The position numbers and the translations under genes were made by a program. The notes beneath the pieces were generated by a model. The model was not told where the DNA came from and searched no databases. It saw nothing but the letters and a program-made list of their open reading frames with translations. Source: a phage. From it: 64,000 nucleotides of DNA. The stretch lies in the sequence record PZ445451.1; one strand, written 5' to 3'. Shown in pieces: positions 2,380 through 61,182 of this stretch (position 1 is its first letter; each line of letters begins with the position of its first letter).

Positions 2380-5199
2380 ATGTATCCTATTCCTCTATTT
2401 ATGTCAACAACACCAGCTTCAGTAGTAACAGCTACATCTATAACTACTTCCTCTATTGGTATTGCAATAGTTGGTGGTAAAAAACAACTGACATACACAG
2501 TTACACCGGAAGATGGTGCATTATTTGATATAGCTTTTTCATCTTCAGATAATACCAAAATGGTTATAGATAATAGTGGTATGATGGAGTTTGTTGCCGA
2601 AGGTGGTTTTGATGCAATAATGACAGCTAAAAATAATTTAGGTGCTGTCTTAACTGATCAATCTGGTGGTTATGCTTCAGAATTAAGTGTGTACACTGAA
2701 AGTCTATCGGCTATGGATGTAGGCACTACTCAACAGTTAGTTGCTACAATCAGTCCAGAAGGTGCTAAAGACCTTCCAGATATGGTAATTACATACACCA
2801 CAACAGATCCAGAAGTAGCTACTGTAAGCCCTACAGGGTTAATAACTGCTCTTAAAGATGGCGGTTGCCGTATAGGTTGTACTGCAACGTATCAAGGAAC
2901 AGTTGTGGCCTCTGATAGGTCTTATTTAGGTGTTAATGCTATTCCTGTTATTTCTAATGTAACAGCCGTGGCAAACAGTTATGGAGACGTTCGTGTTGCT
3001 TGGGATGTAACTGATCCACTAGACGGTGATACTTATACTGTAGAAGTATTAGATTTAAGTGATAATAGTGTTCAGTGGACTACAACAACCACGAATACTC
3101 ATGCTTACTTTGATATCTCTGACTCTATTCCTCTTTATGGGTTTGCTCCAACATACCTTAAAATTAGCGTTAAGAGCACCAAAGCAGCAGCCGTTATCTT
3201 TAATAACTCAATAGCTACAGATGATTCATTCATTAAAGAAGTTATTGTCTTTGCTGGACAAGATAACGTAAATGCACACTTTACAGAACTATCTGGTGCA
3301 AATAAAGCAGCAATGAGTAGCACAACAGCCCGTAATGCATATGCTGCGCAACGTGGTTTAGCAAATGCTGAAGTTCTTCCGTTAAATACAGCTTCTGGAT
3401 CATCAGCAGCAGATAAATATGCTGACGATAAAGCTGGAACAGGTACACCAGACAATTACTGGTATGATCTGGATAACACAGCAGATGGGCCATGCTTAAC
3501 TAACTTTATCACTAAAGTCACACCTTATGCAAGTAAGGTTAAAGCAATTATTTGGGGACAAGGTGAAAATGATGCTGTATCAGCATCTTCGACTGTTGCA
3601 GGTAGGTACAGTAACACTACACGTTACCATGATGCTACGATAGCTATCTTTGATAAGATGCGTACAATAGTTCCTGCTTCTCAAGCAAAAATTGTTTGGC
3701 AGATCCTAGGACGTTCTTATTTATATGGTGTAGAAGTTAATGGTGTGGATTGGCAGAAGTACAGAAATGTACAAAGAACCATCTCTACAGCACGTGATGA
3801 TGTTATCATTGGTTCTTGGGTAGATGGTGCTGAACGTTACAGTGGCTATGTTTATGAAGAAGGTATTGATGGTCGTATCCATTATGTTTCTTCTGTATAC
3901 CAAACAGCAGCTACAAAACTTGCTAAATCGGCAGCAGACGGTACAGACTTAACATCAACGTCACCTGTTTGGGTTGATATGGCTGTTCCAACTGGAGCAA
4001 CAGCCACTTCCCAATCTAATCAAGATACAATTTTAGCATGGGATGCTCAAGGCTATAGTAAACACTACTTCCGTAATATTAACGTCTTAACCGCATCTGT
4101 ATTAACTGAACAAACGCTTAATACGAACAGTTATACGTTTACCTATGCAGATCAAGTAGAACAATATGGTTTTGCAGCAGGAACTGCTATATTTGATGTT
4201 GCATATTATGACGAAGCAAATGATGTGTTATCTCCTTTAGTACGTTTTAATGTTAATATTACAGCAGGAACCGAAGAAGATAAACCTGTCGTGATGGACT
4301 ATGATTTGACGCAAGAAACTCTCCCATCAGATGTTAAGGTTAATGGTGGGAACTCTTTTGCTCGTGCCTCTGGAGATAAACTTGTAGCCACTAACACCTT
4401 GGTTGCCCCGTTGGAGTATGTTGGTACTACCCCTGTAGGTAGACGTGTAACAGCTAACACAGCTACACAAATTTTTGTCAACAACGCCTTAACAAGTGCA
4501 AGCCCGTGGGTAAAGACCAACTTAACTGTTGCAGCTTCATCTGATAACTCTCCGGCTGGAACTACTGCTAATGTATTCAAATTAACTCCGACTACAACCT
4601 CTGGTAGTCATATCTTAACTGCAACATATACTAACGCGTACAACATATCTGCCGGACGTAACTGGTCTGCCTCTGTTTTCTTGAAAGCGAACGGGATTAC
4701 TAAGGCCAAACTAAGATTAAAAGCAGGAACTGAAGTTAATGAGGGTACTTTTGATTTAGCAGCAGGTACATTCACAGGAAGTGAAGCTAATATTATATCT
4801 ATGGGCAACGGTTGGTATCGTGCTATTCTGCATAAAACAGGGATAGCCAAACAGTCCTCCATAAGTTTTGAAATAATTGCCTTGGATGCAACTGGTGCGG
4901 AGATTTTCGCTGGAAATGGTACTAGTAACCTTGCAGTTTGGTTGCCACAGCTTGAAGGTGCTTCTACAGGAGAAACATCAAAAGCTGGATCGCCTTATGT
5001 CTGCACATATCCTGGAAATTTAGGAGGAGTATCCTTCACTATACCAAGGAACGGACATACTGGTGTGGATGTTTACTATTCCAACGGAGACGTTGTTCGT
5101 GACGTATTCTCTGGTACGGCATCTACTTGGACAATAAACTACTCCAGCTTGTACGATTGGGGATCAGTCTTTATTACAGGTTTGAAATATTACGACTAA
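2380..5199 (+). CDS. Tail fibre/tailspike with Ig-like domain and SGNH/sialate-O-acetylesterase-like motifs
   Basis: ATG after AAGGAG; Big_2-like segment (VGTTQQLVATISPEG...VATVSPTGLITALKDGG); FAGQDN and WGQGEND motifs resembling SGNH esterase blocks; 939 aa. Confidence 0.65.
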   Translation: MYPIPLFMSTTPASVVTATSITTSSIGIAIVGGKKQLTYTVTPEDGALFDIAFSSSDNTKMVIDNSGMMEFVAEGGFDAIMTAKNNLGAVLTDQSGGYASELSVYTESLSAMDVGTTQQLVATISPEGAKDLPDMVITYTTTDPEVATVSPTGLITALKDGGCRIGCTATYQGTVVASDRSYLGVNAIPVISNVTAVANSYGDVRVAWDVTDPLDGDTYTVEVLDLSDNSVQWTTTTTNTHAYFDISDSIPLYGFAPTYLKISVKSTKAAAVIFNNSIATDDSFIKEVIVFAGQDNVNAHFTELSGANKAAMSSTTARNAYAAQRGLANAEVLPLNTASGSSAADKYADDKAGTGTPDNYWYDLDNTADGPCLTNFITKVTPYASKVKAIIWGQGENDAVSASSTVAGRYSNTTRYHDATIAIFDKMRTIVPASQAKIVWQILGRSYLYGVEVNGVDWQKYRNVQRTISTARDDVIIGSWVDGAERYSGYVYEEGIDGRIHYVSSVYQTAATKLAKSAADGTDLTSTSPVWVDMAVPTGATATSQSNQDTILAWDAQGYSKHYFRNINVLTASVLTEQTLNTNSYTFTYADQVEQYGFAAGTAIFDVAYYDEANDVLSPLVRFNVNITAGTEEDKPVVMDYDLTQETLPSDVKVNGGNSFARASGDKLVATNTLVAPLEYVGTTPVGRRVTANTATQIFVNNALTSASPWVKTNLTVAASSDNSPAGTTANVFKLTPTTTSGSHILTATYTNAYNISAGRNWSASVFLKANGITKAKLRLKAGTEVNEGTFDLAAGTFTGSEANIISMGNGWYRAILHKTGIAKQSSISFEIIALDATGAEIFAGNGTSNLAVWLPQLEGASTGETSKAGSPYVCTYPGNLGGVSFTIPRNGHTGVDVYYSNGDVVRDVFSGTASTWTINYSSLYDWGSVFITGLKYYD

Positions 5200-35617: not shown

Positions 35618-38392
35618 TTAGTTTATCAGTTTATTTATGTCTGGTAAAAGATTTATTTCACCTAAGAAATCACCTTCACCTTCCTCTAGCCAACTCTCAT
35701 ATGCTTGTGCATGATTATAGTTACCATCAAAAGAATCTGCAACAAATTTTTCTACAGTTTTTCGAGATGTGCCAGCGCCAAATACACCAAGTTTAATACT
35801 ATTGATCGGTAAAGTGGTGCTTGTTGGTACTTTCTCTGTTGCAACACGGTTGATATCTATAATCTCCTGTACGGTTGTGTTCCATTGTAAGCATTTAACA
35901 CAACGGGTATGCGCTACATACAGTAGGTTTCGCTCTGCCTCTTCCAGTCCTACCCATTCACCAGTTTTTTTATCATAATTGGAAGGAAAATCATTAGCAA
36001 CAATAACCTGATCCCACTCCAAACCTTTAGACTTGTGTGCTGTAGTCAATGTGACTTTTGCTGTAGGAGAATTTCTATGCGTTCTAAGTGTATGTGCTAT
36101 AGTGTTTGCCTTGCCAGAAACTACGATGTTTAACAAGCGTTTAGCATCTGGATCAGCCTCTGCACACTCAACAAATTCATTCCAGTCTGCGTAAGGTAAT
36201 ACAGTTTCATGTTTTACTTTCTCAATATCTCCTCTCCGAAGAGCATTAACACTATCTACCATAGAGATAAAATCCCTGGTATCTACGTTAATAATAATTT
36301 CTTCCCCATCTGCAATACGATCCATTGCCTCCATAAGCAAGGTTAAATTCTTGCGAAAGATGATAGTGTAAGGTTTTGTATAGTCTACAACATCTGATTT
36401 GTAGCTACCTACTACAGTATCAAAGCCTTTACCAACCAAAGGATGACGCAAAGGTTCTTTATCGCTTAAAATCATATTGGCAATGTTTGCCACTTTGGGG
36501 CCAAAACGGAAGCAAGCAGTTAATGGAAGCTCTGCCCCATACTTAGCTGTTTCAATCATCATATTAGAGCTACCTCTAAATTGATAAATGCAGTTGTGGC
36601 TAAGAATTTCATTGCCAAAGAAGTTAGCAGTATCCTCTACTTCAATATCATAATAGATACCCTCACTATCTACAATGTCCACAATCTCTTCTGCCGTTAC
36701 AGTATCACCATCTTTTACCAACACAGACATGCCTTTAAACAAACCCGCTGCCGGAATTAAGTTATATTTGGCACTGTTCACAGAGGACATGCATTCTTTT
36801 AAAGATGCAAACGGAACTATTTCAAGGATCTTTTGTGCAAAACTCAATGCTTCACGATAAGAATTGAAATATTTACGTACACGGTAACGACCTTCCAATT
36901 TAGCAGCACTTACGCTTACACCTGCTTTAATCAGTGAAGAATAGATCGGCATTTCACTTTCTGTCCACTCAAAACTAACTTGTGTTCCTTTACAACCTTG
37001 TGCTCGCAAAGTCACTGTTAGCATTTTTCTTTCATCTACTGCACAATTGATGCTGTGCCAGTGTGGATAAGCAAAATGATAATCTTTATCCTCTAAAAGT
37101 TTAAAACCATTTTGTCCGAATTGTTCAAAGATGTTATTGATCCTTTCTTGATTAATGCCGCGTGAACTTGCTTCAAATACACAAGTAGGAATGCCATATT
37201 GTAAACTGTATGCCATTTCTTTTTCCATAGCAGCTTCACGGTTTTCAACAATATCCAACACCCATAATTTCTGTGCTTTTTCAGAACGTGTACGTTGCCC
37301 CAGTTTAGAAAAACCTTCTTTATCATCGAATTTGTTAGTGATCCCTACTCGGAAACCTAAATCTTTCCTCCACATTAGGTATACCACCATCTGATCATCT
37401 TTCAGAACATAGGATGAAGCCCAAATACGATGGTTATGTGTCATATCTAAAGTTTTACCTGTGGCAGTAATAATATTCCTACCTTTTGTACGTGTAGATA
37501 AAGTCTTATTTGTTACTTTTCTAAATGTAATTTTACCATTAGAATAAGACTCTACCTTATCACCGATTTGTAGGTCTTTCATTGTAACCTGACCATTCTC
37601 GGTATTAAGTACCGTGTTTTCCGACACACATTGGAATTCATCGCCCACTACCACAATTTGTTTTGCAGATTTAGCATTTCGCAGAATAGACAAGAATGCA
37701 GGGTTAACATCCTGGAATTCATCACCAAAAATAATGTCATAACCAAGATCAGCACCTGATAACTCAAACAATTTTACATAGGTGTCATGCGTCATCAAAG
37801 TATCTGTGTTAGGATCAATGCGCTCTCGCCACAATTGTTTTGCATACTTAACTACTTCTGTAATTAGTTTGTGTTCGTTAATACCTTTTCTTTTAATATC
37901 TGCAAGATGTACACCAGGGAAATGTTTACGGCTGATAAAAGGATCATCCGAAAATTCAAACTTACCTACGGTTTGCTTGATCATTAAACCAATCATAGCA
38001 CGAGTTAAAAGTGTTTTCCCTCGTTTATCAATAAGATTATTAATCTTAAATTTCTTTGCTATCTCACTACCTGTACCTGCAACGTTAACATACTGTCCTT
38101 CTGGTCGTGACAGTTTTGCACGTAAACGATGATCCAGGAATTGATAGCAAATGGAATGCAATGTACGGCATTCTACATTTGGTGGCATCTTACGCCGTGC
38201 TTCTTCTGCCATGCTTTTATTGAAAGCTAAGTAAAGAATGCGATCTTCTGTACTGTTAGCCAGCAAATAAAGTGTTGACGTTTTGCCTGATCCAGATTTA
38301 GCTTGGATAGTTAAAAAACGATGGTCTGGAAAAGCCTCCTTAATAGCTGTTTGCTCTTCTGTTGGAGTAAAACTCAACTCTTTCTTAGCCAT
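35618..38392 (-). CDS. UvrD/Rep-family (SF1) DNA helicase interrupted by an intein
   Basis: Walker A AKSGSGKT, motif II IIFGDEFQD, motif III split as VVVGDEFQ / CIYQFRGSS by a 346-residue insert; start set at ATG after AGAGAGG. Confidence 0.85.
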   Translation of the reverse strand: MAKKELSFTPTEEQTAIKEAFPDHRFLTIQAKSGSGKTSTLYLLANSTEDRILYLAFNKSMAEEARRKMPPNVECRTLHSICYQFLDHRLRAKLSRPEGQYVNVAGTGSEIAKKFKINNLIDKRGKTLLTRAMIGLMIKQTVGKFEFSDDPFISRKHFPGVHLADIKRKGINEHKLITEVVKYAKQLWRERIDPNTDTLMTHDTYVKLFELSGADLGYDIIFGDEFQDVNPAFLSILRNAKSAKQIVVVGDEFQCVSENTVLNTENGQVTMKDLQIGDKVESYSNGKITFRKVTNKTLSTRTKGRNIITATGKTLDMTHNHRIWASSYVLKDDQMVVYLMWRKDLGFRVGITNKFDDKEGFSKLGQRTRSEKAQKLWVLDIVENREAAMEKEMAYSLQYGIPTCVFEASSRGINQERINNIFEQFGQNGFKLLEDKDYHFAYPHWHSINCAVDERKMLTVTLRAQGCKGTQVSFEWTESEMPIYSSLIKAGVSVSAAKLEGRYRVRKYFNSYREALSFAQKILEIVPFASLKECMSSVNSAKYNLIPAAGLFKGMSVLVKDGDTVTAEEIVDIVDSEGIYYDIEVEDTANFFGNEILSHNCIYQFRGSSNMMIETAKYGAELPLTACFRFGPKVANIANMILSDKEPLRHPLVGKGFDTVVGSYKSDVVDYTKPYTIIFRKNLTLLMEAMDRIADGEEIIINVDTRDFISMVDSVNALRRGDIEKVKHETVLPYADWNEFVECAEADPDAKRLLNIVVSGKANTIAHTLRTHRNSPTAKVTLTTAHKSKGLEWDQVIVANDFPSNYDKKTGEWVGLEEAERNLLYVAHTRCVKCLQWNTTVQEIIDINRVATEKVPTSTTLPINSIKLGVFGAGTSRKTVEKFVADSFDGNYNHAQAYESWLEEGEGDFLGEINLLPDINKLIN
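36593..37630 (-). mobile_element. Intein in helicase motif III
   Basis: Begins CVSENTVLN, block B THNH, ends YYDIEVEDTANFFGNEILSHN followed by Cys; excision rebuilds canonical GDxxQ-IYxFRG. Confidence 0.65.
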
Positions 38393-46732: not shown

Positions 46733-47860
46733 ATGAAATACACGATTTATGGTGATATTGTAAGTGTAAATAAAGATATGGGCGTGGAATCTAACTATCT
46801 TCCACCTGGATTCTATACTGTTAGTCGTGATCCCCTTGGCAATTATTTTTTAAGCCGTGGTAATCTGACAGGTGTACCGGATGTTCTGTATGGTGAAACA
46901 GAAAAACGAGCAAATCACGTTATTCGTACATTCCATCGCCGGAGTGCACAAGGTAAAAATACAGGCTTGCTTCTGACAGGAACTAAGGGCAGTGGTAAAA
47001 CTATGTTAGCCAAACTCATTAGTCGTGACCTTGTAGAAGAAGGTATTCCAACTATTATGGTTACTCAAGCCTACAGTGATGCTAATTTCATTGAACTTAT
47101 TAGCAAGATCACAGACAAAGCAGTCATTATTTTTGACGAGTTTGATAAAGTATATGAGAAGAAACAAGATCAAGAAGCACTTCTCACTTTATTAGATGGT
47201 ACTGGCAGTGGTAATAAACTGTTTATTCTGACTAAAAACAGTGGTTTTATCTCTGAATTCTTTTTAAATCGTCCTAGTCGTGTGTTTTATAATTTTAATT
47301 ATGATAAAATCTCACTAGAAACTATGATTGACTATTTAGATAAAAACCTGGATAACAAAGCACACTTTGATAATTTCCAAAGACTTTGGGATGTAAGTTT
47401 AGAGTTGTCCTTTGATGTGATCCAAGGTATAGTAGAAGAACTTAATTTCTATCCTGATTTATCCTTTAAAGAATGCATCTCTATGATGGGCGTTTCTTTG
47501 GGTGGTGGTAATAAATGGGATATCAGCAGCGTTGTTATTAATGGAAAACTTCAGAAAGTTAGCTGGGTATCTAGTTGGCATAACTTCACACCTGCAATCT
47601 TTTTAGGTGGTTCGTGCACACTAGACGTGTACTTGTCATCTCCAAGTGATGCAGACTCTAAAGAAGCCCTTGCTAATAGCTCTTACGTGGTTTTTGATGA
47701 TGAAGGCGATGCTCGAATTCCATTGAATGCGACAAAAATGAAAGCAGATCTTATTACAGGCGGTAAAATAGTTGTGTTTAGTGATGATCCAGAAGATTCT
47801 TTCCGTATTGTTCTGGAACCAACTATCACCAATGGTGCAACTTTGGCAAGTGTGTTTTAA
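46733..47860 (+). CDS. P-loop NTPase (AAA-like), paralog of 29835-30995
   Basis: Walker A GTKGSGKT, Walker B IIFDEFDK, LLTLLDG and NRPSRVFY blocks shared with the minus-strand paralog. Confidence 0.6.
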   Translation: MKYTIYGDIVSVNKDMGVESNYLPPGFYTVSRDPLGNYFLSRGNLTGVPDVLYGETEKRANHVIRTFHRRSAQGKNTGLLLTGTKGSGKTMLAKLISRDLVEEGIPTIMVTQAYSDANFIELISKITDKAVIIFDEFDKVYEKKQDQEALLTLLDGTGSGNKLFILTKNSGFISEFFLNRPSRVFYNFNYDKISLETMIDYLDKNLDNKAHFDNFQRLWDVSLELSFDVIQGIVEELNFYPDLSFKECISMMGVSLGGGNKWDISSVVINGKLQKVSWVSSWHNFTPAIFLGGSCTLDVYLSSPSDADSKEALANSSYVVFDDEGDARIPLNATKMKADLITGGKIVVFSDDPEDSFRIVLEPTITNGATLASVF

Positions 47861-47875
47861 GTAAGCCAGCAAATA

Positions 47876-47900
47876 AAAACCCGCTTCGGCGGGTTTTCTT
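47876..47900 (+). terminator. Rho-independent terminator AAAACCCGC-TTCG-GCGGGTTTT
   Basis: 9 bp stem with TTCG loop followed by T run. Confidence 0.6.
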
Positions 47901-47934
47901 GTATTAATACCAGATTTAATAAGAGGAGTAATAG

Positions 47935-49338
47935 ATGACAGCACCAAAATCATGGGAACAATATAAAGAAGAATTAACACCCCTTGCTAAAAATCACAAT
48001 ATTCAAATCCTGGGTTATGTTGGGGAATGGAAAGGGAGCAAGACTAAACTTAAACTATCTTGCCCTGATCATGGAGAGTGGGAAAGTACCACAATCGCTA
48101 AATTTAAAACTAAAGGCAGTAAATGTTGCCCCGATTGCAATGGTCGTAGAAAAGTAACAGAAGAAAAGGAATGTATTTCCCTTGTTGATATTGCTAAAGA
48201 AAGAGGGTTTACTTTTATAGGTCTTGCCGAGGAGTGGCGAGGTGTGCGAACAAAAATTCGCATAGTTTGCCCTAAACATGGAGAGTGGAACACCACGCAC
48301 ATTATTGATTTTAGGAATGGACGTGGTTGTCCTATCTGTTCTGGTAAGAAGCCGTTAACATGGGAAACAGAATTACCGATCTTGGCAGAGATAGCACAGA
48401 AGAAGGGGTATCAGGTGTTAGGGTACGTTGGAAAATGGAAAGGGTGTTACACAAAACTTGATTTGTTGTGTCATTGTGGGAACAGATGGGATACTACAAG
48501 TATTAACAGTTTTAAAAATGGCAATGGTTGTCCTTTATGTAGGAGGGAGAATATAAGGAAGGCAAAAACAATATCCGACGATCAACATATTGCAGATTTC
48601 TTTTCTACAGGGAAATTTAAGGAAGGCACTATCTTCACCAATACAGGGAAACGTAGTTGTAGTAAATCAGGAGATATTATCTGGATGATCGAGTGTCCTG
48701 TTTGCTCCCATGATGAATATGTTCAAGCAGGTGTTTGCGATGGTAAATTTTACTCTAGAGGAAGTGATCTTAAACAAGGAAGTATCCCTTGCCGCTGTGC
48801 AACTAGCTATCATTATACAGAAAATCAGATTACCTACAAAGTGAGAAAGGAAATAGAAAAGAAAGGGTATGTCTGGGTAGATTGGATTACCAAACCATCT
48901 TCTATAGGTAAGTTTAAATATCTTTGTCTTGTACATGGGGAGCAGATAGGGAGTGCTCGTAACTTATTAACTCAAGGGTGTGGGTGTTCACAGTGTGCTG
49001 GTCATAGTCAACAGCAATTATATATTAATATTGTTAAAGATAATGATATTACAGTTGCTCTTAAGTTTGGCATAGCTAAAGATAGTGACAGGCGATTAAA
49101 CAGTCAAAATAGCCGTAATCTGTTTTTTATGGAGCGTATTTGTTTATATGATTTTAGTACAGTGAAACAGTGTAAGGCTGCTGAAAGAGCTATAAAGAAA
49201 AAATTAAAAACTGGTATCTTAACAGCAAGAGAGTTGAAAGATGGTTATACAGAAACAGTAAGTGTTTCTGATTTGGAAAATCTTCAAAAAATTATTACAC
49301 AATATGGTGGCAAATTAGTATACAGTAAGGAGATGTAA
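47935..49338 (+). CDS. Tandem zinc-ribbon repeat protein with C-terminal T5orf172/GIY-YIG-like domain
   Basis: At least four repeats of CPxHGEW...F(K/R)xGxGCPxC; C-terminus QQQLYINIVKDNDITVALKFGIAKDSDRRLNSQNSRNL resembles T5orf172-type domain. Confidence 0.45.
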   Translation: MTAPKSWEQYKEELTPLAKNHNIQILGYVGEWKGSKTKLKLSCPDHGEWESTTIAKFKTKGSKCCPDCNGRRKVTEEKECISLVDIAKERGFTFIGLAEEWRGVRTKIRIVCPKHGEWNTTHIIDFRNGRGCPICSGKKPLTWETELPILAEIAQKKGYQVLGYVGKWKGCYTKLDLLCHCGNRWDTTSINSFKNGNGCPLCRRENIRKAKTISDDQHIADFFSTGKFKEGTIFTNTGKRSCSKSGDIIWMIECPVCSHDEYVQAGVCDGKFYSRGSDLKQGSIPCRCATSYHYTENQITYKVRKEIEKKGYVWVDWITKPSSIGKFKYLCLVHGEQIGSARNLLTQGCGCSQCAGHSQQQLYINIVKDNDITVALKFGIAKDSDRRLNSQNSRNLFFMERICLYDFSTVKQCKAAERAIKKKLKTGILTARELKDGYTETVSVSDLENLQKIITQYGGKLVYSKEM

Positions 49339-49890
49339 ATGCGGATTACTGATAAGTATGTGTTCTTCTTTTCAGCAAAAGATGAATTTAGCAACTGGTA
49401 TCTATCATCTTTTATTGAACCTTTAGCACCCAAGTATAATAATTCTATTACAAGTTCTGTTGAATTTACTTGTGTGGAACAATATATGATGTGGAGAAAA
49501 GCATGTTTGTTTTATGATTACAGTATTGCATCTTCTATTTTAACCGGAGATCTAAGATATACAGGAGAAAAAGAACAAGCATATTATAAGCGACTAGGCA
49601 GATTAGTTAAAGATTATGATGAAGATACCTGGACTTCTTTACGGGAGAAGATTGTCAAACGTGGTTTGTATCTTAAATACACACAAAATGAAGATCTCAA
49701 AAATAAACTTATAGCCTACGCAGATAAGGAGTTCGTAGAGGCAAGCCCCTATGATTCTATTTATGGTATCAAAATGGGGATGTGGGATCGTGATGTGGAA
49801 AATAAGGACTGTTGGAAAGGACAAAATCTTTTAGGAAAATGGCATACAGACCTTGCTGTTTATCTAAAAACACAATCTGATATTTCCTGA
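49339..49890 (+). CDS. NADAR (YbiA-like) domain protein
   Basis: FFFSAKDEFSNWY, CVEQYMMWRKACLF and DSIYGIK...GQNLLGKWHTDL align with the conserved YbiA blocks. Confidence 0.6.
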   Translation: MRITDKYVFFFSAKDEFSNWYLSSFIEPLAPKYNNSITSSVEFTCVEQYMMWRKACLFYDYSIASSILTGDLRYTGEKEQAYYKRLGRLVKDYDEDTWTSLREKIVKRGLYLKYTQNEDLKNKLIAYADKEFVEASPYDSIYGIKMGMWDRDVENKDCWKGQNLLGKWHTDLAVYLKTQSDIS

Positions 49891-50103
49891 TATTTTGAAA
49901 ATTTTTATTTTTATAAAAAGGGGTGTGGGTTTCATGTACGGAAATTCACCCTCTGCACAGTATATCCAGAGTAAGTAGTATTCTACACCCTGTTAATAAA
50001 GTATTTAATTTGTTTGTTGGACTATGGTATCTGATCTTTAAAAGGCATACTATCTCTTAACTACTACTTATAACAAAACAGTAAAATCATTTTTATAAAA
50101 AGG

Positions 50104-50310
50104 ACAAAATTATTTAAAGTTTTTACAGATTTTTGGATACAAATTTTGAAAATGAAAAGTTCAAGTTTGGTCAAAATTATTTAAAGTTTTTGTACGTATT
50201 TCTATCCAGATTTTGAAAATGAAAACTTCAATTTTTTAAAAATTCCCCAGTTTATTTAAAGTTTTTTTGCCTTTTTCCGTAGAAAAATCAAAAATGAAAA
50301 GTTCAATTTC
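50104..50310. repeat. Three AT-rich tandem repeat units of about 65-80 bp
   Basis: Each unit has TATTTAAAGTTTTT (50112, 50177, 50253) and TTTTGAAAATGAAAA(G/C)TTCAA (50144, 50211, about 50290); the latter holds the inverted pair TTGAA...TTCAA. Confidence 0.6.
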
Positions 50311-50326
50311 GTGTTTTTATAGGTGT

Positions 50327-50445
50327 GCGTATGATAATCATTCTCATTTGTAAATGAGAATCATTATCATTTAATTATGTAAGTGATAATCATTCTCAGT
50401 AAGAGAATGAGAATCATTAGCAAATGAGAATTTTTCTCATTTAGA
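50327..50445. promoter_or_regulatory. Cluster of Fur-box-like palindromes
   Basis: GTATGATAATCATTCTCATTT-GTA-AATGAGAATCATTATC near-perfect palindrome; GATAATCATTCTCA...GAGAATGAGAATCATTA; AATGAGAA-TTT-TTCTCATT; 13-15 of 19 identity to GATAATGATAATCATTATC. Confidence 0.45.
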
Positions 50446-50703
50446 GAATAACGCGCAGGGGCGGTGTTTGTCTCGCGCTCCCGTGTCCCCTCGCCATACA
50501 ATAAGAATAGCATAACCAACAACAAAAGCAAGCGATTATTTTTATCTTTACATTTCTTTACAAATTTATTTTAGACGAGCTACCGGCGATCAACCTTCCA
50601 ACCAGTGCCCCCTGGTATGTTAGCCCCGCCTTTACGCCGTGGGGGTGGCGTTTCCTCTTCTGTATGTAAAACAGTATAAGCCCGATCCCTGGGCTTGTCA
50701 AGA

Positions 50704-50970
50704 TTATTTTTTGTTTTCTTGCCAGGAAAGGACACCTAACCAAAAATACATATCGCCCCGCGCCCCTGGCGGGATCTTGCTTTCCCCGCCGCCACTGCAA
50801 GCCCATAAATAACCATCAGCGAACGGATCAAAATGTTCTATCTCTTCCACCTTATGATCGCCCAGGTTGAGAACGGTTTCAATCTTTAAGCCCGTTGCGC
50901 TTGCTACCTGGTGCACCGTGCCGCCTTGCCAGCCCAATGAGTGCATGAGATGTAAAGGAGTATTTGTCAT
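50704..50970 (-). CDS. Hypothetical protein inside GC-rich island (possible moron)
   Basis: 88 aa minus-strand ORF with RBS-like AAAGAAAGGG; surrounding 0.6 kb is visibly more GC-rich than flanks. Confidence 0.4.
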   Translation of the reverse strand: MTNTPLHLMHSLGWQGGTVHQVASATGLKIETVLNLGDHKVEEIEHFDPFADGYLWACSGGGESKIPPGARGDMYFWLGVLSWQENKK

Positions 50971-51078
50971 GGTATCGCCCTTTCTTTGATGTGCGCCCTG
51001 GTTGGCGCGGTAGAAAGATAATAGCCGTTTCCTTTATAGATAGCAAGCAAAAAAGAAATGAAAAAAGATTAAAAATGG

Positions 51079-51107
51079 TTGACGTTACCAGGATAATAAC
51101 ATATTAT
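51079..51107 (+). promoter_or_regulatory. sigma70-like promoter TTGACG-17-TATTAT
   Basis: Good -35/-10 match with 17 bp spacer upstream of the early gene array. Confidence 0.45.
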
Positions 51108-51234
51108 TCATCTTGTCGAGGGGGGCAAGGCACAACGACAATAAATAAAAGGCGGGTGCAATGCAGGACGGGCAAAGGTGAGGATCTCCATAATCCACCG
51201 TCACAATAACATTACTTATAAAAGGTTGATAACG

Positions 51235-51330
51235 ATGATCAAGAAAGAAAACAGCTTGACGGTTGGAACGATTAACGCTATCATTCTAGCCGTTCCATTT
51301 TGGATTGTAGTAGCGGTTGTTATTTTCTAA
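51235..51330 (+). CDS. Small hydrophobic peptide (31 aa), not in ORF track
   Basis: MIKKENSLTVGTINAIILAVPFWIVVAVVIF, one transmembrane helix. Confidence 0.35.
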   Translation: MIKKENSLTVGTINAIILAVPFWIVVAVVIF

Positions 51331-51339
51331 AAAATATTC

Positions 51340-51395
51340 TTGACAACGTTTTTTAATCTGATAAGATGTATCACATAGGGCGGCAATAGTGCCGC
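51340..51395 (+). promoter_or_regulatory. Promoter plus 5' stem-loop unit (PeSL-like)
   Basis: TTGACA 51340-51345, 16 bp spacer, TAAGAT, then CACATAGGGCGGCAATAGTGCCGC hairpin at predicted transcript 5' end. Confidence 0.65.
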
Positions 51396-51419
51396 TCATA
51401 ACAGAAGAGAGAAATAATC

Positions 51420-51692
51420 ATGGCATCATATAGCGCATCAATGATCGTAACGGGCATGACTGGTAAACCTATGCGCGGTGGCGGATCTTTCGCTAACATC
51501 AATATTGATGGGCGTTTATCCCTGGATGCAGCGATCACCGTGGCACGGGAAACATTTAAAAAAGAATGTAATTTCAATAAACAAGATTATCTCGGCTTCG
51601 TTATTGAAAAAACAGCGCGCTTTGTTGATTATAAAAGCCCGAAAATGATCGACACTACACTAAAAGCGCAAGATGTAGCATTTTTGCTTTAA
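51420..51692 (+). CDS. Early protein, unknown function
   Basis: 90 aa ORF downstream of PeSL unit with A/G-rich RBS. Confidence 0.55.
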   Translation: MASYSASMIVTGMTGKPMRGGGSFANINIDGRLSLDAAITVARETFKKECNFNKQDYLGFVIEKTARFVDYKSPKMIDTTLKAQDVAFLL

Positions 51693-51695
51693 GGC

Positions 51696-51755
51696 TTGAC
51701 ACTGAAAAATAATTTAGTAATATATACCACATAGGGCGGGAAATGGTTTCCCGCC
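51696..51755 (+). promoter_or_regulatory. Promoter plus 5' stem-loop unit (PeSL-like)
   Basis: TTGACA 51696-51701, 16 bp, TAATAT, then CACATAGGGCGGGAAATGGTTTCCCGCC hairpin 51735-51755. Confidence 0.7.
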
Positions 51756-51777
51756 AAATCAAAGAAAGGGTAACACA

Positions 51778-52140
51778 ATGAGCAAGCAAATCAATACTAT
51801 CATGTTAAACCTGGTATCTTTCCGCGATGACGTGAAAAATCTTTCGCGTGATGCAGTGGATGCACGGATCGAAAGCTATCGCACACAGATCGCAACATTA
51901 CCGTTAAAACGTGATCAACATGCCGCTAATATGATGCTTGGTGCTATGATTAAAAAGATGATTCAGTGTGATCTTACCCTGGCTTATGAATATGCTGGCG
52001 ATCTCTTTGTAACGTATAATAAGCCCGTTCCAGGTATGAGCACCACGGAAGAATTGCATGCCTTAAATTTGCGACAAGATGCATGGGATAACATGCGCCG
52101 TGTTATGGTATGGGCCGAAAGCGGTAAAATTTACGAATAA
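51778..52140 (+). CDS. Early protein, unknown function
   Basis: 120 aa ORF, RBS AAAGAAAGGG. Confidence 0.55.
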   Translation: MSKQINTIMLNLVSFRDDVKNLSRDAVDARIESYRTQIATLPLKRDQHAANMMLGAMIKKMIQCDLTLAYEYAGDLFVTYNKPVPGMSTTEELHALNLRQDAWDNMRRVMVWAESGKIYE

Positions 52141-61106: not shown

Positions 61107-61182
61107 TAAATGATAATCATTCTTATTTATAGCTGATTATTTATGCAATAAACTGCATAATGCAATAATGATAATCATTCTT
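61107..61182. promoter_or_regulatory. Two Fur-box-like sites
   Basis: AAATGATAATCATTCTTA (61108-61125) and AATAATGATAATCATTCTT (61164-61182); the latter matches the Fur consensus at 16 of 19 positions. Confidence 0.45.

Follow-up and report, generated by a model that had tools for sequence, protein, structure and literature searches.

What does the gene between an ATPase gene and a NADAR-domain gene encode in the phage DNA of sequence record PZ445451.1, and how can a gene that is kept at one place differ so much between close relatives? The window analyzed here is a stretch of 64,000 nucleotides, and the open reading frame (ORF) in question, bas60_0110, occupies 47935..49338 on the + strand, from an ATG to a TAA stop codon (49336-49338); it is intact and specifies a protein of 467 amino acids (aa) made up of five CapR repeats and a T5orf172 domain. 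The ORF is a 100% match to positions 80610-82013 of MZ501100.1, the genome of Escherichia phage PaulScherrer (Bas60; Stephanstirmvirinae, Justusliebigvirus), with window position 47935 corresponding to record position 80610. The PaulScherrer record labels it 'hypothetical protein', RefSeq names its orthologues 'endonuclease', UniRef lists the orthologue of phage alia as 'CapR homology domain-containing protein', and the protein matches PHROG 681 'endonuclease' (3.6e-91). From its homologies, and by analogy with characterized relatives, we consider it likely that bas60_0110 cuts DNA site-specifically, as a modular endonuclease of the 'T5orf172 homing-endonuclease' type, and, with less certainty, that it acts mainly in mixed infections. 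A preceding sequence-only reading had proposed a sequence-specific nucleic-acid binder or nuclease, which homology to CapR and to T5orf172 proteins supports.

The N-terminal part of the protein is an array of five repeats, which fall into two subtypes and recur every 67-69 aa (207 nucleotides, nt), all on the + strand: R1 (aa 1-74; 47935..48156), R2 (aa 75-141; 48157..48357), R3 (aa 142-209; 48358..48561), R4 (aa 210-294; 48562..48816), which is the divergent subtype, and R5 (aa 295-358; 48817..49008). The sequence-only reading had counted at least four repeats of about 55 aa, so that both its count and its repeat length are revised upwards. The Pfam hidden Markov model (HMM) CapR (PF21817) matches the whole protein in five stretches (E = 3.2e-46, 155.8 bits). 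When the repeats were scanned singly, R1 to R4 scored 39.9-56.1 bits each (9e-11, 5e-10, 4.1e-15, and 1.1e-12, respectively), above the gathering score of 24.2, and R5 scored 18.8 bits (0.0019), under that threshold. Pairwise alignment of R1, R2, and R3 yielded z scores of 20-25 against 500 shuffles, none of which reached the observed score (R1 has z = 20.9 vs R2 and 20.4 vs R3); in the same analysis R5 was marginal (z = 1.8-4.0) and R4 undetectable. An in-house HMM, seeded from R1, R2, R3, and R5 and iterated over 120 homologues, scores its own seeds at 1e-19 to 1e-24, R5 at 2.5e-19 as a seed member and hence not independently, and does not find R4. The array is described as five repeats of two subtypes because the two profile searches settle the pairwise ambiguity of R4 and R5. 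Internal repeat detection and an HMM search, two of the checks that the sequence-only reading had named, both came out in favor of a repeat array.

All five repeats contain two pairs of predicted Cys/His ligands, about 17-30 residues apart. In R1, R2, R3, and R5 the pattern read from the sequence is C-x2-H (or C-x-C) ... C-x2-C, with predicted ligands C43, H46, C65 (or C64), and C68 in R1; C112, H115, C132, and C135 in R2; C179, C181, C199, and C202 in R3; and C331, H334, C351, and C354 in R5. The predicted ligands of R4 are C254, C257, C286, and C288. The motif CPxHGEW...GCPxC that had been put forward for every repeat is exact in R1 and R2 and gives way to CHCGNRW...GCPLC in R3, CLVHGEQ...CGCSQC in R5, and CPVC...CRC in R4. 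Seven of the predicted ligands, with the four Cys of R4 among them, are at least 90% conserved across 91 homologues. The repeats can be assigned by similarity to the CapR/DUF723/DUF4379 group of zinc-finger domains. PF21817 is named after CapR, the capsid repressor of the Vibrio cholerae satellite PLE, which has the CxxC...CxC signature that is seen in R4, with 28 residues between the pairs in R4 vs 24-26 in CapR. PLE CapR binds DNA in electrophoretic mobility shift assays (EMSA), and binding depends on its four cysteines, as judged from Cys-to-Ser mutants (Netter 2021; PMC8096241). By analogy, the repeats of bas60_0110 are predicted to bind Zn and DNA.

An AlphaFold2 model of the whole protein, built from a 91-sequence alignment, has a mean predicted local distance difference test (pLDDT) score of 90.7, and each repeat is modelled as a long helix, three strands, and a short helix. 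R3 modelled alone (pLDDT 91.3) has the same elements, with the first ligand pair at the turn between strands 2 and 3 and CPLC, the second pair, at the point where the next helix begins. Because the second Cys pair of R3 sits at a helix N-terminus, the model of this one repeat suggests a treble-clef-like finger, which is consistent with how Pfam names the related DUF4379 and with the published comparison of the CapR finger to the zinc finger of I-TevI (Netter 2021; PMC8096241). A fold search recovered no classical zinc ribbon, a fold with two zinc knuckles that each come from a beta-hairpin. The earlier term 'zinc ribbon' is loose, and a classical ribbon is not what the R3 model suggests. The best Foldseek matches of the full model are proteins with tandem double-stranded RNA-binding domains (dsRBDs), at weak scores (TARBP2 E = 2e-3, Loqs-PB, NF90, ADAR2), and the closest solved relatives of the repeats are mitoribosome assembly factors, as might be expected if the protein bound RNA or were directed by it. 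However, a zinc site is absent from dsRBDs, EMSA shows binding of double-stranded DNA by the homologous CapR domain (PMC8096241), and the partner domain belongs to a DNA-nuclease superfamily. The likeness is probably a coincidence of topology, the alpha-beta-beta-beta-alpha order being common to the modelled repeat and the dsRBD, and we rate the chance of an RNA-binding role as close to negligible.

The array is followed by a putative T5orf172/GIY-YIG-like nuclease domain (aa 359-467, 109 aa; 49009..49335, + strand), which matches T5orf172 (PF10544) with 20.7 bits in the context of the whole protein and 23.6 bits when aa 359-467 are scanned alone (gathering score 20). Diverse homologous tails give the same assignment, with 13/24 matching T5orf172 (best E = 1.6e-5) and 7/24 its sister family MUG113. 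The AlphaFold2 tail runs strand-strand-helix-strand-helix-helix-strand, and so is predicted to have the beta-beta-alpha-beta-alpha core of the GIY-YIG alpha/beta fold. Residues Y363, K377, G379, R387, E417, G437, and E440 are invariant in the 91 homologues, down to about 25% identity, and Gln391, which occupies the helix-1 position of the canonical His/Tyr, is at least 90% conserved. For I-TevI, we take the corresponding residues to be Y6, Y17-x-G19, R27, H31, and E75; the spacing G379-R387-Q391 then mirrors G19-R27-H31, and Y363, R387, and E440 are presumed from this spacing to correspond to Y6, R27, and E75. The tail appears to hold the Tyr/Arg/Glu center of GIY-YIG enzymes, with Gln in place of the helix-1 His/Tyr. 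The canonical GIY-YIG model PF01541 has no match in bas60_0110, where the two motifs read LYI and KFG, and the tail can be placed in the T5orf172 branch and not in PF01541. With a PF10544 score above the gathering threshold, an invariant Tyr/Arg/Glu set, and a predicted fold of the right kind, the T5orf172/GIY-YIG-like C-terminus of the sequence-only reading is upheld.

That such a domain may cut DNA is indicated by Odn (Gp88) of phage ICP1, a T5orf172 protein that cleaves DNA in vitro when purified, whereas its E180A mutant does not (PMC8263062). Odn resembles bas60_0110 in joining a T5orf172 nuclease to a separate DNA-binding module and in lacking the helix-1 His/Tyr while keeping the catalytic Arg/Glu (PMC8263062); it differs in its targeting, since Odn is directed to the iterons of the PLE origin by a RepA_N domain copied from the satellite, and bas60_0110 has a zinc-finger array instead. 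A protein with the same parts might alternatively act as a DNA-binding regulator, with the nuclease inactive or secondary, either as a repressor in the manner of PLE CapR or as an autorepressor in the manner of I-TevI. PLE CapR is a repressor that stems from DNA-binding domains belonging to such homing endonuclease genes (HEGs; PMC8096241), I-TevI is noted to be capable of repression (Barth et al., 2023; PMC10448857), and the substitution of Gln391 for the canonical residue might be taken to point the same way. CapR, however, is a transcriptional repressor without a nuclease domain, whereas bas60_0110 retains an apparently intact T5orf172 domain in which Tyr, Arg, and both Glu are invariant over the 91 homologues and dN/dS (the ratio of nonsynonymous to synonymous divergence) falls to 0.05; moreover, Odn still cleaves DNA without the same His/Tyr (PMC8263062). 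We regard such a regulatory role as highly improbable.

The architecture itself has been described. PLE CapR was presented as a zinc-finger DNA binder related to the N-termini of ICP1 T5orf172 proteins, which were called putative homing endonucleases (Netter 2021; PMC8096241), and in a survey of 229 T5orf172 HEGs, fingers of the CapR, DUF723, or DUF4379 type were present in 87%, frequently as a tandem series of 'beads on a string' (Barth et al., 2023; PMC10448857). Among the accessions in the supplements of that survey, a search for bas60_0110 orthologues found only the genome entry for phage Inny. The putative HEGs of ICP1 (Gp130/TcgB, Gp121, Gp165, Gp174, and Gp53) are likewise composed of N-terminal tandem CapR fingers and a C-terminal T5orf172 domain, and they are also alike in undergoing repeat-mediated in-frame deletions and domain swapping; the survey reported that ICP1 gp174 had lost 228 bp in-frame between repeats, and that domains had been swapped among HEGs (PMC10448857). 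Gp130 ('tcgB, putative homing endonuclease', beside a split terL) is a direct homologue; its nuclease domain is 40% identical to that of PaulScherrer (E = 3e-25), and the N-terminal halves are only about 20-30% identical. Unlike the ICP1 HEGs, bas60_0110 has five repeats of two subtypes, and whereas several such genes occur in ICP1, where some are frameshifted or vary in presence, the PaulScherrer gene is single-copy and at a fixed locus.

I-TevI and the free-standing T4 Seg GIY-YIG endonucleases are further parallels, with a catalytic domain of GIY-YIG fold tethered to a DNA-binding region, which in I-TevI includes a small zinc finger; they differ from bas60_0110 in that the latter belongs to the T5orf172 branch, has KxG for YIG and Gln for His, and carries an array of several fingers. 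The nuclease of I-TevI is N-terminal and that of bas60_0110 C-terminal, so that the order is reversed. The subfamily defined by the nuclease domain comprises 485 clusters at 50% identity (E <= 0.001), in which the proteins are 200-555 aa long and nearly always have this domain as their C-terminal end, and in distant relatives the same finger repeats are fused to the canonical GIY-YIG PF01541. A 669-aa metagenomic protein (P0025) contains within one ORF two full units of CapR fingers and T5orf172 fused head to tail, which suggests that entire nuclease genes were duplicated in tandem and that the stop codon between them was then lost. Collectively, bas60_0110 adds to a published architecture a member with the family's known evolutionary habits, in a well-sampled coliphage subfamily; new in this comparison are the fixed locus, the divergence hotspot, the alleles of five, four, and three repeats, and the exchange of R4-R5 cassettes.

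If bas60_0110 is such an endonuclease, the five CapR-type fingers would be strung along the protein, each holding one Zn through four Cys/His ligands, and the array would jointly read an extended DNA site, as the EMSA results for PLE CapR lead us to expect. The C-terminal T5orf172 domain would then cut nearby DNA through its conserved Tyr/Arg/Glu center, by analogy with Odn and its dead E180A mutant. Less certainly, in a mixed infection the enzyme would cut the genome of a related phage with a different allele or target sequence, and recombinational repair from the nuclease-bearing genome would spread the allele and its flanks, as in the marker exclusion of the T4 Seg/Mob enzymes. Changes in array length and swaps of R4-R5 would retarget the enzyme.

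At this locus, variation among relatives is concentrated in the nuclease gene. In all 56 Justusliebigvirus records that contain them, the ATPase and NADAR genes on either side keep at least 95% nucleotide identity, whereas among 62 records matching the nuclease gene (the 56 of this genus and six of Phapecoctavirus) 48 are at 80-90% identity and nine at 90-95%, which marks the nuclease gene as a local divergence hotspot. Conservation across related phages, the further check that had been named, accordingly has two sides: the gene is kept in 56/56 Justusliebigvirus records and the array is variable. Alleles of 5, 4, and 3 repeats, which come about through in-frame deletion of units of 207 and about 408 nt, encode proteins of about 467, 390-397, and 325-329 aa, respectively. 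Four-repeat alleles lack R2 as one 207-nt unit; inny and phi92 are without exactly this unit, in-frame, with breakpoints inside the repeated TTGCCCTnAnCATGGAGAGTGG, and EmilieFrey is without about two units, which fits a direct-repeat pair spaced 408 nt.

Pairwise codon comparisons of the PaulScherrer locus, carried out segment by segment (ATPase, parts of the array, nuclease domain, and NADAR), separate the history of the array from that of its surroundings. Within Justusliebigvirus the ATPase protein is 100% identical and the NADAR protein 98-99% identical (synonymous divergence, dS, 0.07-0.16). The nuclease domain has dS of 0.05-0.16 and dN/dS of 0.05-0.4, and is 95-98% identical in the pairs with a phi92-type R4-R5, in which the flanks are 99-100% identical; across Stephanstirmvirinae orthologues at the locus it is 92-98% identical. 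For R4-R5, dS is 0.4-0.9 vs alia, ALITA, inny, and EmilieFrey, and rises to 1.7-2.7 vs phi92 and PATM, where amino acid identity is only 40-43%. Gp222 of phi92 is an orthologue at the same locus, but it has four repeats and shares only 40-43% identity with PaulScherrer in the R4-R5 cassette. Conversely, R4-R5 is 72-74% identical to that of phAPEC8, a phage of another genus, for which identity is only 59-66% in the flanking proteins and 47% in the nuclease domain. Per-domain identities over 40 homologues are similarly mosaic, with nuclease classes at about 94% and about 50% identity paired with different arrays. These patterns indicate an exchange of the R4-R5 module between cassettes that are deeply diverged, including across genera. 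Since no segment in which dS could be measured has a dN/dS as high as 1 (range 0.15-0.82; with a dS of zero the ratio is undefined), the variation is mainly replacement from a diverged pool and not runaway point mutation. An intact ORF in each of the eight translated loci, conservation of the catalytic residues, and turnover of the specificity modules speak for a nuclease that is in use.

The distribution of the gene is that of a fixed locus. In all 56 Justusliebigvirus records with the flanking genes (56/56), the ATPase and NADAR genes enclose the nuclease gene; in both of the Phapecoctavirus records that were inspected, this gene directly follows the ATPase gene. Homologues outside the subfamily occur in unrelated contexts, a feature of HEGs: in Seunavirus SSE121 the homologue lies in an isolated +-strand gene pair inside a --strand block, in Acinetobacter phage ABPH49 it adjoins the DNA polymerase gene, and in ICP1 it lies beside the split terL. 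These placements are consistent with mobility over evolutionary time. In ABPH49 (2493-3833) the homologue is annotated as only 221 aa with a 675-nt unannotated gap upstream, and could be a truncated, decayed, or wrongly called gene. A set of four 146-kb records that bear the label 'Campylobacter phage' (MG065639, MG065645, MG065656, and MG065689; host C. jejuni) is about 95% identical to the Justusliebigvirus locus including both flanks, and probably consists of mislabelled or contaminant coliphage genomes.

Several observations weigh against the proposal of a homing-type endonuclease. The T5orf172 match is marginal in relation to its gathering score, and the helix-1 His/Tyr of canonical GIY-YIG enzymes is Gln391 here, although Odn too is without that residue and yet active. 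Searches of PDB sequences with an HMM profile of either the whole protein or its nuclease domain found no solved structure and hence no GIY-YIG enzyme: the full-length profile returned only the zinc-ribbon-like bL31 at an insignificant E = 0.05, and the nuclease-domain profile only noise (GST, E = 1.4). In addition, no empty site was found in the 56 Justusliebigvirus and two Phapecoctavirus records, which counts against active homing, and the sporadic presence and absence typical of a homing gene is not seen within the subfamily. The fixation of the gene argues against ongoing invasion of empty sites, and fits either competition between alleles in mixed infections, of the T4 Seg/Mob marker-exclusion kind, or domestication against a parasite.

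Domestication would make bas60_0110 an immobile nuclease kept for the benefit of the phage against a satellite or competitor, as Odn of ICP1 destroys the PLE origin, and its DNA-binding array would have diversified in an arms race with the target and not for homing. Domestication is consistent with a gene fixed at one locus in all Justusliebigvirus and the two Phapecoctavirus records, with an ORF intact in eight loci, and with a nuclease domain under purifying selection beside an array that is swapped or resized. Moreover, in the related coliphages Inny, Muut, and Mt1B1_P17 there is another T5orf172 gene, one with a RepA_N domain, for which an anti-satellite role has been proposed (Barth et al., 2023; PMC10448857); the Inny genome has two T5orf172 places, and the whole PaulScherrer genome has one. 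On the other hand, the CapR-type arrays at this locus have been linked to no satellite or host sequence, their DNA-binding modules have been exchanged between phage genera and not copied from a satellite gene, and a HEG that has succeeded may likewise end up fixed. The biochemistry would be the same as that of a homing-type endonuclease, and only the target and the beneficiary would differ. We treat domestication as a serious if unlikely alternative.

A further proposal, which we put forward tentatively and hold to be doubtful, is that the endonuclease gene is neither an invading HEG of the classical sort nor simply a domesticated nuclease but forms a fixed locus of allelic competition, in which a conserved nuclease is retained at one position by all Stephanstirmvirinae genomes examined and its array is re-dealt by deletion or duplication of units and by R4-R5 exchange. 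Each allele might cut its rivals, possibly in the variable array-coding region, the only strongly polymorphic DNA nearby. If true, the locus would constitute a self-retargeting exclusion system among co-infecting relatives.

A ribosome-binding site, GAGGAG (47923..47928, + strand), lies 6 nt before the ATG of the endonuclease gene, as read from the sequence, and an AGGAG site is annotated at the same place in phi92. Further upstream, a hairpin terminator with nine pairs and a T-rich tail (47876..47897, + strand), annotated as a terminator in phages PATM and Paula, follows the ATPase gene. Because this terminator sits 5' of the nuclease gene, expression would need read-through or a promoter of its own; in a promoter scan sigma-70-like sites were no commoner than in shuffles, and none ahead of the nuclease gene was convincing. 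The upstream neighbor (46733..47860, + strand) is an AAA-type ATPase (Pfam AAA 1.5e-9, PHROG 2376 ATPase) that marks the conserved locus and is separate from the nuclease. Its annotation is 'FtsH-like protease', but the only models that it matches are those of AAA/P-loop ATPases, and none is of a peptidase domain. The ATPase protein shows 100% identity across the seven Justusliebigvirus phages compared, an unusually strong conservation beside a hypervariable gene.

The downstream neighbor encodes a NADAR-domain protein (49339..49890, + strand; Pfam NADAR 3.5e-36), and its start codon abuts the nuclease stop codon, so that the adjacency noted in the sequence-only reading is exact. This protein also matches the riboflavin-intermediate N-glycosidase model TIGR02464 (1.9e-31) and the PADLOC candidate-defense model PDC-M42C (1.7e-34). 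A phage-borne NADAR protein could counter defense by DNA ADP-ribosylation. Functional coupling between the nuclease and NADAR was judged unlikely, because two small genes separate the pair in Phapecoctavirus; the adjacency is probably not functional. The nuclease itself had no match in NCBIfam and PADLOC scans, and thus no link to a described defense system. A tblastn search of the nuclease protein against the window returned only the self-match and no paralogue, and tRNA and Rfam scans of 47700-51800 found nothing.

In the roughly 1.5 kb located 3' of the NADAR gene (49891-51400) hardly any coding sequence is annotated, and neither a tRNA nor an Rfam match is present. A set of three direct repeats (50089-50309), AT-rich and about 79 nt long with spacings of 67 and 75 nt, is followed by a cluster of palindromes (50329-50443) and then a GC-rich stretch, and 50234-51128 is 84% identical to phAPEC8, where neighboring genes are at about 68-71%. 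The 1.5 kb may be a replication origin or a regulatory hub. The possibility that finger number tracks the number of 67-75-nt direct repeats 3' of NADAR, as iteron-like targets, was rejected, since phages with five, four, and three fingers all have three copies. A scan of the window with what we take to be the E. coli Fur box consensus, GATAATGATAATCATTATC, identified six Fur-box-like sequences with <=3 mismatches vs 0.01 expected from shuffles (positions 37072, 50350, 50403, 61164, and 62045 among them). The two compared with the annotation, at 61164 and 62045, are both intergenic, and the sites hint at iron- or Fur-responsive control of some phage transcripts.

With these assignments, bas60_0110 and its orthologues labelled 'hypothetical protein' can be renamed as CapR-zinc-finger/T5orf172 endonucleases. 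The natural alleles of five, four, and three repeats and the two types of R4-R5 cassette, on a near-isogenic background, provide a ready-made specificity series, and the fingers, should they turn out to be modular, could interest engineers of programmable nucleases. As a member of the BASEL reference collection that can be grown on E. coli K-12, PaulScherrer is a tractable coliphage model for questions about T5orf172 HEGs. Questions first raised by ICP1 may be addressed here, namely what the arrays recognize, whether a change of length or cassette retargets the enzyme, and whether a fixed nuclease of this family reflects homing or domestication.

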